A DNA stretch of 64,000 bases, from NCBI GenBank assembly GCA_011525665.1, contig WYAU01000093.1, positions 3,793 to 67,792 on the forward strand. The letters are read 5' to 3'. Made by a program: the position numbers and the translations under genes. Below are positions 8,675-52,783 of the stretch, one piece after another. Each line of letters starts with the position of its first letter. Position 1 is the stretch's first letter. The notes below the pieces were generated by a model. It was not told the DNA's origin and searched no databases. It worked only from the letters and a program-made list of their open reading frames with translations. The DNA is from Candidatus Brocadia sp. (lineage in GTDB: Bacteria > Planctomycetota > Brocadiia > Brocadiales > Brocadiaceae).

Positions 8675-9823
8675 ATGAAATATATTGATGAGTTTCGCAA
8701 AGGAACTATTGCGGCGGGCATATCCAAAAAAATGGCTGCCCTTGTGGAAGGGCACGACAGGATTACCATTATGGAGGTATGTGGAAGCCATACCATGTCC
8801 GTATACCGGTATGGACTAAAAAATCTGCTTCCGCCAAAACTGAGATTACTCTCCGGCCCCGGGTGTCCCGTATGTGTTACCTCTCCCGATTATATTGACA
8901 CTGTTATAGCAATGGCTCAGCTAACAAATTCTTCTTCACCTGCAAAAAAAGACATAATAATAGTTACATTTGGGGACATGATGAAGGTACCTGGCTCTTC
9001 ATCGAGTCTGGAAATAGAACGGGCTAAAGGGGCATCTGTTGCCGTGGTTTATTCGACACTTGATGCCTTGCGTCTGGCGGAGAAACATCCGGAAAAACAA
9101 ATCGTTTTTCTGGGTGTAGGTTTTGAGACCACTGCCCCAACCATTGCCGCGTCTGTTATTGAAGCGGAGAGGAGAGGACTGAAAAACTACTTTGTCCTTA
9201 CCGCACATAAGATAATGCCACCTGTCATGAGGGCTCTTCTCACAGACAAAGAATTGAATCTCCATGGTTTTTTGTGCCCGGCGCACGTAAGCACTATTAT
9301 CGGATCGAGACCGTATAAATTCATTGCGCAAGACTTTCATATTCCCTGCGTAATCGCTGGTTTTGAACCATTGGATATTTTGCAGGGTATTTACATGCTT
9401 CTTGAACAAATTGTAGGGAAGAATGCATGTGTCAAAATCCAATACTCGCGGGTGGCAAAAGAGGAAGGAAATCCAACAGCCCTGGCTTTATTAGAAAAGG
9501 TTTTTGAGCCATGTGATGTTGAGTGGCGAGGACTCGGGCTGATCCGGAAAAGCGGCCTCAAATTGAGAAAAGAGTATGAAAGATTCGATGCCCTCACGGC
9601 ATTTCGGATTTTTGATTTCGGATTTCGGATTAATCCAGAAATCCGAAATCCGAAATCCGCATTCCACGGTTGTATCTGCGGTGATATCTTACGGGGTGTA
9701 AGAATGCCGCCTGAATGCAGGCTTTTTAAGACGGTTTGCAATCCGGAACATCCAGCAGGCGCATGCATGGTTTCAAGCGAGGGAACGTGTGCGGCATGGT
9801 ACAAATATGGAGAAGCCCCGTAG
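8675..9823 (+). CDS. hypD: Hydrogenase maturation factor HypD
   Basis: 382 aa. MKYIDEFR start, MEVCGSHT, GPGCPVCV, FETTAP, and the C-terminal CxxHP...MVSSEGTCAAWYKY motif. Confidence 0.95.
   Translation: MKYIDEFRKGTIAAGISKKMAALVEGHDRITIMEVCGSHTMSVYRYGLKNLLPPKLRLLSGPGCPVCVTSPDYIDTVIAMAQLTNSSSPAKKDIIIVTFGDMMKVPGSSSSLEIERAKGASVAVVYSTLDALRLAEKHPEKQIVFLGVGFETTAPTIAASVIEAERRGLKNYFVLTAHKIMPPVMRALLTDKELNLHGFLCPAHVSTIIGSRPYKFIAQDFHIPCVIAGFEPLDILQGIYMLLEQIVGKNACVKIQYSRVAKEEGNPTALALLEKVFEPCDVEWRGLGLIRKSGLKLRKEYERFDALTAFRIFDFGFRINPEIRNPKSAFHGCICGDILRGVRMPPECRLFKTVCNPEHPAGACMVSSEGTCAAWYKYGEAP
9601..9660. repeat. In-frame heptamer-repeat palindrome inside hypD
   Basis: Perfect 18-bp stem gatttcggatttcggatt (9614-9631) / aatccgaaatccgaaatc (9640-9657) with an 8-nt loop. 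Built from ATTTCGG/CCGAAAT heptamers. Encodes FRIFDFGFRINPEIRNPKSA. Confidence 0.85.
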
Positions 9824-47809: not shown

Positions 47810-48820
47810 ATGAAAGAAGCAATGTTTTTTGAAAAACTCGGGAATAACAGGGTTAAGTGTCATCTCTGCCGTCATCACTGTGTCATTGATGATGGCAAAA
47901 GGGGTATTTGCCGGGTCAGGGAAAATCATGGTGGCACGCTCTATTCTCTTGTTTACCGGAAACTCGCTTCTGAGAATATCGACCCTATTGAAAAGAAACC
48001 TCTTTTCCATTTTTATCCGGGCAGTAGCGCCTTTTCTGTGGCAACGGTGGGATGTAATTTCAGATGTCTGAACTGTCAAAACTATGAGATCTCCCAATTG
48101 CCAAAGGATCATGACAGGATCACAGGCAGAGACGTTGCGCCGGAACAGATCGTTGATGATGCCGTAAATCATCATTGCACGAGTATTGCTTATACCTATA
48201 CGGAACCAACCATTTTTTTTGAATATGCATATGAAATTGCAAAAATAGCAGCACGAAAAGCCATAAAAAATATATTTGTAACAAATGGATATATTACCCG
48301 TGAAGCCCTAGCAACAATAAAACCGTATCTTCATGCTGTAAATGTAGATTTAAAAAGCTTTTCTGAGGAAAGATACAAAAGGCTCTGTGGCGCACGGTTG
48401 GACCAGGTGCTTGATTGCATCCGTTCCTATAAAGAGATGGGCATCTGGATAGAAATTACCACATTAATCATTCCGGAAATTAACGATACGGAGCCTGAAT
48501 TGAAACGAATTGCAGGATTTATCAGGGAAGTAGGCCCTGAAATTCCGTGGCATGTAAGCCGCTTTTACCCACGGTACAGGCTGATAGAAAAACCGCCGAC
48601 TCTGATAGACACGCTCAGAATGGCCAGAGAAATCGGCCTTGCGACGGGGCTACGCTATGTTTATGAAGGCAACGTACCGGGCGAAGGCGGGGAAAATACT
48701 TATTGCTATCAATGTAAAAAAATCCTTATCCGGAGGTATGGCTATCAGATCGTTGAAAACAATATCATCCATTCAAGATGTCCTGCATGTGATGCAGTGA
48801 TTGACGGTATCGGCATGTAG
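47810..48820 (+). CDS. Radical SAM enzyme of the PflA/AmmeMemoRadiSam type
   Basis: 336 aa. N-terminal CHLCRHHCVIDDGKRGICRVR cluster motif, then the radical SAM CNFRCLNCQN (CxxxCxxC). C-terminal CYQC...CPAC. Confidence 0.75.
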   Translation: MKEAMFFEKLGNNRVKCHLCRHHCVIDDGKRGICRVRENHGGTLYSLVYRKLASENIDPIEKKPLFHFYPGSSAFSVATVGCNFRCLNCQNYEISQLPKDHDRITGRDVAPEQIVDDAVNHHCTSIAYTYTEPTIFFEYAYEIAKIAARKAIKNIFVTNGYITREALATIKPYLHAVNVDLKSFSEERYKRLCGARLDQVLDCIRSYKEMGIWIEITTLIIPEINDTEPELKRIAGFIREVGPEIPWHVSRFYPRYRLIEKPPTLIDTLRMAREIGLATGLRYVYEGNVPGEGGENTYCYQCKKILIRRYGYQIVENNIIHSRCPACDAVIDGIGM

Positions 48821-48842: not shown

Positions 48843-49301
48843 ATGATTAAATTAAAAAAGATACTATGCCCTGTAGACCATTCCGAATGTTCGTATCTCG
48901 CCTTAAAGTATGCTATTTCTCTGGCATTAAAAGACGAGGCAAAATTATATCTTATGCACGTGATAGACACCCGTTTGTACGATACGGAAATATACAAATT
49001 CAGCCCTTATAAGATCAGTGAGATTGATATTGTGAAAATTCGTGAAGATTTGATGAAAAGCCTGCCAGAAGGCACAACAGACGTCCTGGAGGTGGAAACG
49101 ATTGTGGTAAAGGGTGTGCCATTTTATGAGATTGTCAATGCAGCGGAGGAAATCGGCGCTGACATTGTAGTGATCGGAACCCATGGCAGAACGGGACTTT
49201 CCCATGTTGTCATGGGCAGCGTGGCGGAAAAGGTGGTACGAAAAGCCCCCTGCCCCGTGCTTACCGTCAGAATTCCCCCTTCACTGCCGAGTAAGAATTA
49301 A
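48843..49301 (+). CDS. Universal stress protein (UspA family)
   Basis: Internal start MIKLKKILCPVDHSE with an AAAGGAG SD. C-terminal VIGTHGRTGLSHVVMGSVAEKVVRKAPCPVLTV motif. Confidence 0.85.
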   Translation: MIKLKKILCPVDHSECSYLALKYAISLALKDEAKLYLMHVIDTRLYDTEIYKFSPYKISEIDIVKIREDLMKSLPEGTTDVLEVETIVVKGVPFYEIVNAAEEIGADIVVIGTHGRTGLSHVVMGSVAEKVVRKAPCPVLTVRIPPSLPSKN

Positions 49302-49334
49302 ACGTGTGACTTTATTGATAATTGCTTAAAAATA

Positions 49335-49376
49335 AGCCATTGCAGCATTATGGTTCACACTGCAATGGCTCTTTTT
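49335..49376. terminator. Bidirectional rho-independent terminator between usp and the NrdD-like gene
   Basis: Perfect 11-bp stem AGCCATTGCAG-N14-CTGCAATGGCT followed by CTTTTT. An A-run precedes it, which reads as a T-run for the minus strand. Confidence 0.7.
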
Positions 49377-49416: not shown

Positions 49417-49812
49417 TTACCGTACTGAATATTTTCCCATATGCCTGTCGTGTAATTCACCAATTTTTGACTTATTCCAGTTAGATACCCGGCTATAATA
49501 TCCTACGATGCGGGTAACCCCATGAAGACGAGTGGTTATTCCCGTTTCAAGGGCATGGATAATCGATTCCAAATCCTGTCGTATCACTGAATCCACATCT
49601 ATAGCAAATGCACATTCCAACTTGTGATTAATAATTTTTAAACAATCCTCTTTTGGTGTATTTCCAGGGATTTCACCATCGATCTCTAAAAACTCATGGC
49701 CTTCCATTACCTCATCAAAGGCATTCAGCTTCTCTTCAATAAAGAACTGGATGTCCTCGCCGTCTCCAACCTTTCCCCCTATCGCAGGATTTCCCAATAT
49801 AGCTGTTGTCAT
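49417..49812 (-). CDS. Stand-alone NrdD-type glycyl-radical domain protein (131 aa)
   Basis: Strong AAGGAG SD about 10 nt upstream of the ATG. C-terminus HGVTRIVGYYSRVSNWNKSKIGELHDRHMGKY matches the extreme C-terminal glycyl-radical loop of class III ribonucleotide reductases (R-I/V-x-G-Y...W-N-x-x-K-x-x-E-x-x-D-R). Confidence 0.6.
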   Translation of the reverse strand: MTTAILGNPAIGGKVGDGEDIQFFIEEKLNAFDEVMEGHEFLEIDGEIPGNTPKEDCLKIINHKLECAFAIDVDSVIRQDLESIIHALETGITTRLHGVTRIVGYYSRVSNWNKSKIGELHDRHMGKYSVR

Positions 49813-50062
49813 TTCGCCTTATCTCCTTATATGCATTTTTAGTAATTCCTTTACCCAGTAACGATTTGCTTTTGCAAATACCCTCTTTTTTTTCAGTATA
49901 AAACTTTTGCACATGCTCCAATTATTCCTATTTTCTCAACAACAAAAATCTTCTCTGATCACCTCCCTTCCTCTGAAAAATGATTTATACCTTTATGCTA
50001 TATGTTGTACATCACTATGGTTGTATATCTATATCATAAAAAAAAACTTTGTCAAGAACAAA

Positions 50063-50078
50063 ACACAATATTTTGTAT
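50063..50078. promoter_or_regulatory. Candidate NrdR box 1
   Basis: ACACAATATTTTGTAT versus the published consensus acaCwAtATaTwGtgt, 14/16 by hand count. Confidence 0.5.
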
Positions 50079-50093: not shown

Positions 50094-50109
50094 ATACAAT
50101 ATATTGGTA
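50094..50109. promoter_or_regulatory. Candidate NrdR box 2
   Basis: ATACAATATATTGGTA with a perfect CAATATATTG core, 12/16 to consensus. Its centre lies 31 bp from the box 1 centre. Confidence 0.45.
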
Positions 50110-52447: not shown

Positions 52448-52540
52448 TGGCGGAGAGGCCGGGATTCGAACCCGGGGTAGGGATTTAGTCCCTACAACGG
52501 TTTAGCAAACCGTCGCTTTCAGCCACTCAGCCACCTCTCC
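52448..52540 (-). tRNA. tRNA-Ser (anticodon GCT), CCA encoded
   Basis: GGAGAGG acceptor stem, anticodon arm ACGGT-TTGCTAA-ACCGT, long variable arm TGTAGGGACTAAATCCCTACC, T arm CCGGG-TTCGAAT-CCCGG. Confidence 0.9.
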
Positions 52541-52693: not shown

Positions 52694-52783
52694 TGGCGGA
52701 GGGAGTAGGATTCGAACCCACGGGAGACTCACGCCTCCAGCAGTTTTCAAGACTGCCGCCATAGTCCACTCGGCCATCCCTCC
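52694..52783 (-). tRNA. tRNA-Ser (anticodon TGA), CCA encoded
   Basis: GGAGGGA acceptor stem, anticodon arm GCAGT-CTTGAAA-ACTGC, long variable arm, TTCGAAT T-loop. Confidence 0.9.

Follow-up and report, generated by a model that had tools for sequence, protein, structure and literature searches.

A stretch of 64,000 nucleotides from Candidatus Brocadia sp. (assembly GCA_011525665.1, contig WYAU01000093.1), here called the window, carries at positions 49417-49812 of the minus strand a stand-alone gene for a protein of 131 amino acids (aa), hereafter the small gene and the small protein. The C-terminal end of this protein is of the glycyl-radical type known from NrdD, the class III (anaerobic) ribonucleotide reductase (RNR). 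A preliminary description of the window had proposed it as a possible spare part for that enzyme. Here we present a set of features of the small gene, together with a comparison of its relatives and of the NrdD proteins found in the same and in other lineages. As judged from the sequence data, the small gene encodes, with a probability of about 0.7, an autonomous glycyl-radical domain that serves NrdD in trans.

The small gene, its protein and its predicted operator

The open reading frame (ORF) starts with ATG and ends with a stop codon at 49417-49419. A Shine-Dalgarno sequence, AAGGAG (49823-49828, minus strand), can be read directly 10 nt 5' of the start codon. Between the small gene and a convergent gene for a universal stress protein (Usp) lies an intrinsic-terminator hairpin with a 15-bp stem (49334-49371), which is preceded by an A-run and followed by a T-run and can thus terminate both genes. 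The well-formed minus-strand gene with a two-way terminator, as reported in the preliminary description, is found in the sequence with all its parts. The spacer 5' of the gene holds nothing NrdD-like, in agreement with that description, but it does contain one longer ORF, which had been missed: a 108-codon ORF with a TTG start on the plus strand, of low complexity and unrelated to NrdD. No second NrdD-like sequence was detected by tblastn elsewhere in the 64-kb window.

Two domains can be distinguished in the protein. The glycyl-radical domain (aa 96-131, LHGVTRIVGYYSRVSNWNKSKIGELHDRHMGKYSVR; 49420-49527, minus strand) was delimited by the matches of the Pfam and TIGR models for the NrdD C-terminus and by hhalign. 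Pfam NRDD (PF13597) aligns with aa 96-124 over profile positions 533-560 of 562 (E 4e-5, 22.9 bits, with the cut-off of 26.2 not reached), and TIGR02487 aligns with the same residues over positions 551-579 of 581 (19 bits, cut-off 326, likewise not reached). As both curated cut-offs are missed, the protein does not belong to NrdD as a whole protein. When the profile of the small-protein family was compared with that of aligned full-length NrdDs, hhalign placed aa 89-131 on NrdD 755-808 with a probability of 99.6% (E 1.4e-23), and nothing else in the small protein found a counterpart in NrdD. The C-terminal signature recognized in the preliminary description is consequently matched by Pfam NRDD, by TIGR02487 and at the profile-profile level, the similarity being significant and limited to the C-terminal loop.

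The presumed radical glycine is Gly104, located within TRIVGYY and encoded by GGA at 49501-49503; the surrounding loop aligns with RITGY of the solved NrdD of Prevotella copri (8p23). The small protein conforms to the radical motif R-[IV]-x-G-Y followed by NWN.[SG]K..EL.DR and keeps every invariant position of the NrdD tail. It shares the motif RIVGY..NWNKSK..EL.DR with NrdD, and 24 of 36 tail residues (67%) are identical to those of the Brocadia enzyme. In 24 anammox homologues the stretch TRIVG104YYSRVSNWNKSKIGELHDRH does not vary, and in 31 diverse family members it is almost constant. Beyond the tail the two proteins differ. NrdD possesses an ATP cone, a ten-stranded catalytic alpha/beta barrel with a Cys finger loop (CCRL) and, before the radical loop, a four-Cys Zn ribbon, whereas the small protein, just 131 aa long, has none of these four elements. 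The ribbon residues C740, C743, C754 and C757 are present in 114 of 114 NrdDs compared; the Cys residues of the small protein are C57 and C67, with no CxxC pairs.

The N-terminal domain (aa 1-95; 49528-49812, minus strand), defined by an AF2 model and by alignments, is family-specific and acidic, with a pI of 4.3 and 20 D+E versus 7 K+R. Its acidity and the missing Zn ribbon (2 Cys, no CxxC pair) are as stated in the preliminary description. According to the AF2 model it consists of a helix, three strands and then helices (pLDDT ~80-88 over aa 21-110), after which come a short strand at TRIV and a long helix at the C-terminus. Invariant positions are H39, LEIDG42-46, N62-H63 and ETG89-91. None of the 31 family members scanned gave a Pfam match in this domain (31/31), and BLAST alignments to NrdD (~37% over ~125 residues) are driven by the tail. 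A derivation of the N-terminal domain from the last barrel strands of NrdD was considered and rejected, since the hhalign match begins only at aa 89.

Upstream of the small gene are two sequences resembling NrdR boxes. Box 1 (ACACAATATTTTGTAT, 50063-50078) has 2 mismatches to ACACWATATATWGTGT; box 2 (ATACAATATATTGGTA, 50094-50109), situated 31 bp from box 1, has 4. No other such pair exists in the window (expectation per shuffled window, 0.005). Of 24 Brocadiaceae loci, 20 have a pair with this spacing in the 450 nt upstream of the small gene, as opposed to 2.35% of random 450-nt pieces. The pair is retained in relatives with a different upstream gene and is therefore assigned to the small gene and not to the divergent HAD gene. 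With tandem 16-bp boxes ~31-32 bp apart upstream, the small gene is a predicted member of the NrdR regulon, and the NrdR-box-like operators noted in the preliminary description are confirmed as a predicted tandem pair that is conserved in relatives. A promoter scan revealed no sigma-70 consensus upstream on the minus strand; TTGACA is present at 50050-50055, just after box 1, with no convincing -10 hexamer to pair with. In an Rfam scan of 47-53 kb no leader RNA was found, only two tRNAs. The nrdR-nrdD operons of Brocadia and Scalindua (loci L087, 5230-5474, L088, L169 and L172) show only an AT-rich box-like sequence after TTGACA, with no pair at up to 5 mismatches.

Conservation of the family and the resident NrdD

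A homology search delivered 489 homologues at E<=1e-3, and nearly all of the best 120 of these 489 have a length of 125-137 aa. Named sources among the matches listed are Candidatus Brocadia, Jettenia, Kuenenia, Loosdrechtia, Wujingus and unclassified Brocadiales; the length is conserved in Brocadia, Jettenia, Kuenenia, Loosdrechtia and the deeper Brocadiales. By exhaustive profile search 782 cluster representatives were obtained at E<=1e-3. Among the best 150 of these 782, all but one are at most 241 aa long and 128 also match the N-terminal domain; a minority of the profile-search matches are C-terminal fragments of ordinary NrdDs. A typical family member has 100-170 aa. Genome loci of the family originate from Planctomycetota, Elusimicrobia and metagenome-assembled genomes (MAGs) labelled Clostridia or Ignavibacteria, and members occur in phages as well. 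Scans of Pfam and NCBIfam contained no curated model for the family. Orthologues are annotated as hypothetical proteins or, misleadingly, by KEGG- or RAST-style pipelines as class III RNR large subunit; ~130-aa members bearing the names 'class III RNR large subunit' or 'anaerobic ribonucleoside-triphosphate reductase' are documented by P0051, P0090, P0473 and PMC9909701.

Compared with seven relatives, the small gene has a dN/dS of 0.09-0.14, and in the radical tail dN is 0.024 at a dS of ~0.8-1.1. The small gene is functional and under strong purifying selection. The orthologous short ORFs of constant length, whose presence in relatives the preliminary description had left to be checked, do exist and are subject to this selection. 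As an alternative the same description had considered a conserved remnant of a decayed nrdD, without a function of its own. Such a remnant would account for the fact that only the extreme 3' end of nrdD is represented, but the dN/dS of 0.09-0.14 and the invariant positions in both domains exclude a decaying nrdD. The gene furthermore possesses its own Shine-Dalgarno sequence, start codon and terminator and encodes a conserved N-terminal domain unrelated to NrdD, the family has hundreds of members across several phyla and in phages, and an intact nrdD is located elsewhere on the same chromosome in related Brocadia genomes. No NrdD-like DNA was found 5' of the gene in the window or in relatives, and none of 26 related loci has a disrupted nrdD beside the small gene, the same short gene of the same length being present instead. 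The remnant alternative can be regarded as refuted.

Class III RNR of Brocadia was recovered by a search with a Brocadiales NrdD. The Brocadia NrdDs have 815 aa and an intact tail, YGISRIVGYFSRINNWNKSKIGELADRHKGSY. On the chromosome CP091279.1 the nrdD gene of P0289 lies at 2.76 Mb in an nrdR-nrdD-nrdG-smc operon, with an NrdG that is a member of TIGR02495, and the small gene lies at 1.58 Mb. Both genes are probably also located on one contig in a second Brocadia genome and in a Jettenia genome, where the longest contigs recorded for the small protein and for NrdD agree in length (3,250,501 bp and 3,970,402 bp, respectively), and contig CAVPVY010000005.1 carries both the small gene (L047) and nrdD (L085). 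On the latter contig (2.9 Mb), nrdD is found in two frames of 654 and 204 aa (L085, 7657-10165) with a break at ~9527-9531, which is probably a long-read assembly error rather than a sign of a pseudogene. The complete nrdR-nrdD-nrdG set with an intact NrdD tail in relatives implies that the small gene is not one half of a split gene, and that its product does not stand in for an absent NrdD in this lineage. That the small gene is not simply the 3' end of an intact nrdD, as the preliminary description had stated, is underlined by these full-length copies of nrdD, nrdG and nrdR elsewhere on the same chromosome in relatives.

NrdD proteins without a radical glycine, and phage copies

Four Elusimicrobia-type loci (L053, L056, L059 and L060) encode an NrdD that keeps the four-Cys ribbon and ends 5-12 residues later, which is exactly where the radical tail should begin. 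The truncated NrdD measures 781-784 aa in L056, L059 and L060, and the CCRL finger-loop motif is present in these three, which the check for this motif covered; in L053 the gene runs off the contig end, with the last 166 codons only. In all four loci the TAA stop of nrdD is followed, after 25-142 nt, by a family member of 98-106 aa with its own Shine-Dalgarno sequence. An nrdG gene (TIGR02495) is located upstream in L056, L059 and L060, and nrdR upstream in L059 and L060, where the gene order is nrdR-nrdG-nrdD-small and NrdR box pairs precede nrdR. The 142-nt spacer between nrdD and the small gene in L060 (4140-4281) is composed of two tandem units of ~57 nt, each with a GC-rich hairpin, GGGGACTGTCCCTGAACAGGGACTGTCCCC. 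A phage contig (L176) encodes an intein-interrupted NrdD that ends right after the ribbon, and a family member of 97 aa 4.7 kb upstream on the same strand. NrdD ORFs of 1000-1600 codons with in-frame inserts of 1.2-1.5 kb were observed in L176 (15004-19881), L119, L076, L078 and L079; these inserts, from one phage contig and from Clostridia-labelled MAGs, are presumably inteins.

A second type of NrdD emerged when the 114 full-length NrdDs closest to that of Brocadiales were surveyed: the radical motif is present in 70 and absent in 44. Where named, the 44 belong to Scalinduaceae, Anammoxibacter and other Brocadiales. Their tails, here termed dead, read for example YGIRRLVSHDKVNNWDRTR or FGIERIDSYHQRLNNWSPAR, the glycine being replaced, usually by Ser; further loop examples are RRLVSH, KRDSH and RIDSY (proteins P0306-P0388). 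The body of the dead-tail proteins shares 76.8% identity with Brocadia NrdD, compared to 81.4% for proteins with an intact tail, whereas the respective values for the tail are 38% and 80.5%. CCRL and the four ribbon Cys are kept in 44 of 44 dead-tail NrdDs. Like the intact Brocadia gene, their genes lie in an nrdR-nrdD-nrdG-smc order, with nrdG still adjoining; examples are L169, 10001-12400 (Scalindua, GCA_031316235.1), and L172, 10001-12391. Where nrdG is kept beside an NrdD that offers no glycine for activation, one would expect the radical acceptor to be encoded elsewhere. Scalindua and other Brocadiales carry members of the small family with 125-156 aa.

Some additional features of these lineages were recorded. 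The AF2 model of a dead-tail Scalindua NrdD has a mean pLDDT of only 65.8, with the finger loop scored as low as the tail. A Brocadiales MAG has, between its nrdR and dead-tail nrdD genes (L172, 9597-9980), a 127-aa ORF with neither a Pfam match nor a radical motif. In two Scalindua loci (L064, 10884-12779; L073, 10689-12590) the small gene is followed by a gene for a 631-633-aa fusion of a BcrAD_BadFG ATPase with HGD-D, a protein resembling activators of 2-hydroxyacyl-CoA dehydratases.

Phages represent the third source. In 77 of 80 loci from IMG/VR the motif lies in a stop-to-stop ORF of 55-265 codons, and NrdD is not encoded within a distance of 6 kb. Neighbouring genes encode head protease, major head and tail proteins in L094, Mu-type transposases in L090, a replication initiator and GroES in L101, and Sak4, SSB, helicase and primase in L048. 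Second paralogues in genomes of the Brocadia and Kuenenia type are situated in prophage-like DNA (L045, L042 and L044): in L045 (9941-12016) the paralogue adjoins a large terminase gene, and L042 (10001-12737) and the Mu-like viral contig L090 (7895-8749) have a 284-aa ORF in common. Anammox phages therefore appear to carry the module. Split loci, dead tails with a retained nrdG, and phage copies are three ties that connect the family with NrdD in trans.

For lineages with a truncated or dead-tail NrdD, a role of the small protein as the sole radical carrier is more likely than that of a spare. In Brocadia, by analogy with GrcA/YfiD, a spare or alternative module is the most likely role. The points examined that could have refuted the spare-part idea of the preliminary description all favour it; the term itself is an analogy, and for the lineages just mentioned sole carrier is the likelier description. 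It is also conceivable, though unlikely, that the small protein is the regular and preferred radical subunit of the Brocadia class III RNR despite the intact NrdD tail. The family evidently provides the only possible radical carrier in split systems and dead-tail lineages, in Brocadia the small gene has a clearer NrdR operator upstream than nrdR-nrdD has, and one Brocadiaceae NrdD (P0304), a possible intermediate, already reads RIGDY instead of RIVGY. An unused tail, however, would not be expected to keep a perfect radical motif in 32 of 32 NrdDs of the Brocadia/Jettenia/Wujingus type (P0272-P0303; tail identity ~80-100%), and nrdG adjoins nrdD.

Several observations weigh against a radical domain acting on NrdD in trans. 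The intact NrdD tail in Brocadia makes a 'spare' indistinguishable from a 'preferred' radical donor. The Brocadia small gene is 1.2 Mb away from nrdDG, and its constant neighbours are not nrd genes but those for Usp and an AmmeMemoRadiSam radical SAM enzyme. Co-regulation of the two loci is at most presumed, as no NrdR box pair was found upstream of the Brocadia nrdR-nrdD operon at up to 5 mismatches. Dead-tail NrdD and small gene were seen together at the level of lineages, not within one assembly, and the dead-tail genomes may contain a second, intact NrdD. A Foldseek comparison of the AF2 model of the small protein (pLDDT 74) with the PDB gave no match at E<=0.001, the top ones being unrelated alpha+beta proteins, and no papers turned up in literature searches with Q1PZP4, KsCSTR_06960, BROFUL_00982 and BIY37_03390, the names of orthologues.

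Neighbouring genes, proposed function and comparison with known systems

Downstream of the small gene lie the convergent usp gene (48843-49301, plus strand; likely start ATG 48843; Pfam Usp 126.7 bits) and, 597 bp from the small gene, a gene for an AmmeMemoRadiSam radical SAM enzyme (47810-48820, plus strand; TIGR04337, 342 bits versus a cut-off of 220). Both are constant in 26 Brocadiaceae loci, while the other flank varies. Usp is counted here as a conserved neighbour only; the radical SAM enzyme is a possible candidate partner of the small protein. The preliminary description had taken a PflA-family radical SAM enzyme at ~600 bp as a link to nrd genes. A PflA relative is indeed located at 597 bp, but it is not the nrd activase: as it matches TIGR04337 and the true NrdG (TIGR02495) adjoins nrdD, the neighbouring enzyme was rejected as this organism's NrdG. 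Two tRNA-Ser genes (anticodons GCT and TGA; 52448-52540 and 52694-52783, minus strand) are situated 3 kb from the small gene.

In nine loci of deeper Brocadiales, a TIGR00725 gene comes after the small gene, with Memo (TIGR04336, AmmeMemoRadiSam protein B) as the next gene. Three loci of non-anammox Planctomycetota have a TIGR04337 gene directly after nrdG, with a 4-nt overlap in L070. AmmeMemoRadiSam genes were located in L070 (11285-12274), L058 (12405-13394), L082 (3272-4264) and L006 (10749-11978). The small protein itself matches none of TIGR04335, TIGR04336 and TIGR04337 and is not an AmmeMemoRadiSam component.

This arrangement raises the question of whether the small protein is a substrate or partner of the AmmeMemoRadiSam radical SAM enzyme and would carry a radical for a process beyond, or besides, ribonucleotide reduction. 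The constant order small gene-usp-TIGR04337 in Brocadiaceae, the Memo gene two genes away in the deeper Brocadiales and the position of TIGR04337 directly behind nrdG in other Planctomycetota speak in favour of it, as does the fact that TIGR04337 enzymes are the nearest relatives of glycyl-radical activases. We nevertheless consider it rather improbable. The tail is NrdD-specific down to every invariant residue and the operator is of the NrdR type; the systems of Elusimicrobia and phages combine the small gene with NrdG and have no TIGR04337; the small gene is convergent with the usp-radical SAM genes and separated from them by a terminator, so that they are not co-transcribed; and synteny inside one family may be mere inheritance. 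Of similarly low probability is a variant that retains ribonucleotide reduction, in which the radical SAM enzyme, together with Memo, would be the dedicated activase or maintenance enzyme of the detached NrdD module in Planctomycetota. If true, this would provide the first substrate for the AmmeMemoRadiSam system, whose radical SAM enzyme is widespread and PflA-like, and a second, NrdG-independent route by which a glycyl radical is loaded onto class III RNR.

Elusimicrobia loci show a different neighbourhood. In L049 (5797-7370), L050 (9541-10767) and L055 (5684-6569) the small gene is located between an Rrf2 regulator gene and a gene whose product combines a rubredoxin-like N-terminus with a desulfoferrodoxin iron-binding domain; these assignments are based on a family search in L050 and on sequence similarity in L049 and L055. 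The context of the small gene fits a connection with stress, with Usp in the Brocadia window and genes for oxidative or nitrosative stress in those Elusimicrobia loci.

The mode of action that we propose, comprising radical formation, docking, rescue of NrdD and the identity of the activase, would be as follows. The small gene would be expressed under NrdR control, together with the demand for deoxyribonucleoside triphosphates (dNTPs). An activase, most simply the NrdG of the genome (TIGR02495 type), would abstract a hydrogen atom from Gly104 in the TRIVGYY loop. The C-terminal ~36 residues would then insert into the NrdD barrel beside CCRL, the Cys finger loop, and give rise to the thiyl radical used in nucleotide reduction, and the acidic N-terminal domain, in place of the Zn ribbon, may serve docking or recognition by the activase. 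In Brocadia, the small protein would act as a spare or alternative radical module restoring NrdD whose tail was cut by oxygen or otherwise lost, and in lineages with a truncated or glycine-less NrdD no other subunit would bear the radical.

Oxygen destroys glycyl-radical enzymes by cutting the polypeptide chain at the radical glycine, and NrdD is cleaved in this way at its own radical glycine. The product of this cleavage is close to the NrdD naturally encoded by Elusimicrobia. A regulatory function of the small protein, by which it competes with the NrdD tail for NrdG or for the barrel and so throttles RNR, or stores a radical without catalysis, would agree with its motif for recognition as an NrdG substrate, with the predicted NrdR regulation and with an N-terminal domain that has no assigned role (no PDB or Pfam relative was found). 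It cannot explain tail-less or glycine-less NrdDs with a conserved catalytic core and nrdG, and we regard it as very improbable.

The closest known parallel to a detached radical domain of NrdD is GrcA/YfiD of E. coli, the spare part of pyruvate formate-lyase (PFL). GrcA and the small protein are both small (127 versus 131 aa) and stand-alone, with a C-terminus that corresponds to the glycyl-radical domain of a parent encoded elsewhere and an extra N-terminal part without a counterpart in that parent. As in the case of GrcA, a stand-alone duplicate of the radical domain coexists with an intact parent elsewhere in the genome (CP091279.1, 815-aa NrdD). Differences exist in the parent, which is PflB for GrcA and NrdD for the small protein, and in the family assignment: unlike GrcA, the small protein does not belong to Gly_radical (PF01228), as a Pfam scan at E<=1 gives NRDD only, for it and for 31 family members alike. 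Whereas the N-terminal part of GrcA is disordered, that of the small protein is predicted by modelling to be a folded alpha/beta domain. In contrast to GrcA, the small protein would be obligatory in those lineages whose NrdD has no radical domain of its own; to our knowledge, no such loss by the parent is known for GrcA. A stress-linked context and phage-borne copies are again common to both, Y06I of T4 being a phage homologue of GrcA (PMC13450708).

Other RNRs and glycyl-radical enzymes offer more distant comparisons. Class I RNR (NrdA plus NrdB) would follow a like logic to the split and dead-tail lineages, with a catalytic and a separate radical subunit, but chemistry, fold and ancestry are unrelated; in the class III case a radical SAM enzyme would install a glycyl radical that acts by loop insertion and not by long-range transfer. 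Small accessory polypeptides of glycyl-radical enzymes are also known from benzylsuccinate synthase (beta and gamma subunits) and 4-hydroxyphenylacetate decarboxylase (gamma subunit). These subunits carry Fe-S clusters and not a radical glycine, whereas the small protein carries the radical motif itself.

According to a review of June 2026, spare-part proteins are known for no glycyl-radical enzymes but the formate lyases, and whether others have them is still to be determined (PMC13450708). As the preliminary description had supposed, no spare part for NrdD appears to have been described before: the review names formate lyases only, and our full-text literature searches found no NrdD spare part and no split or dead-tail NrdD. 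On sequence grounds the small protein is hence the first candidate for such a part among the glycyl-radical enzymes outside pyruvate formate-lyase. Autonomous glycyl-radical cofactors as such are a known concept; new are the application of this concept to RNR, the folded N-terminal domain and the obligatory two-subunit form.

Intact tail plus module, dead tail plus module and deleted tail plus module form a natural series of three stages, which implies that some class III RNRs are two-subunit enzymes with the radical on a separate protein of 100-150 aa. This architecture was described neither in the literature searched nor in the June 2026 review (PMC13450708). The family is widespread, occurring in Planctomycetota (in all anammox lineages sampled), Elusimicrobia and phages. 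Labels such as 'RNR large subunit' on ~130-aa proteins can cause these to be counted as NrdD when RNR classes are surveyed in metagenomes. The phage copies suggest that viruses manipulate the anaerobic dNTP supply of their hosts. For anaerobes, the small protein represents a concrete candidate for a repair module of an enzyme that makes DNA precursors, and how well anammox bacteria in partial-nitritation reactors tolerate oxygen may depend on the small gene.

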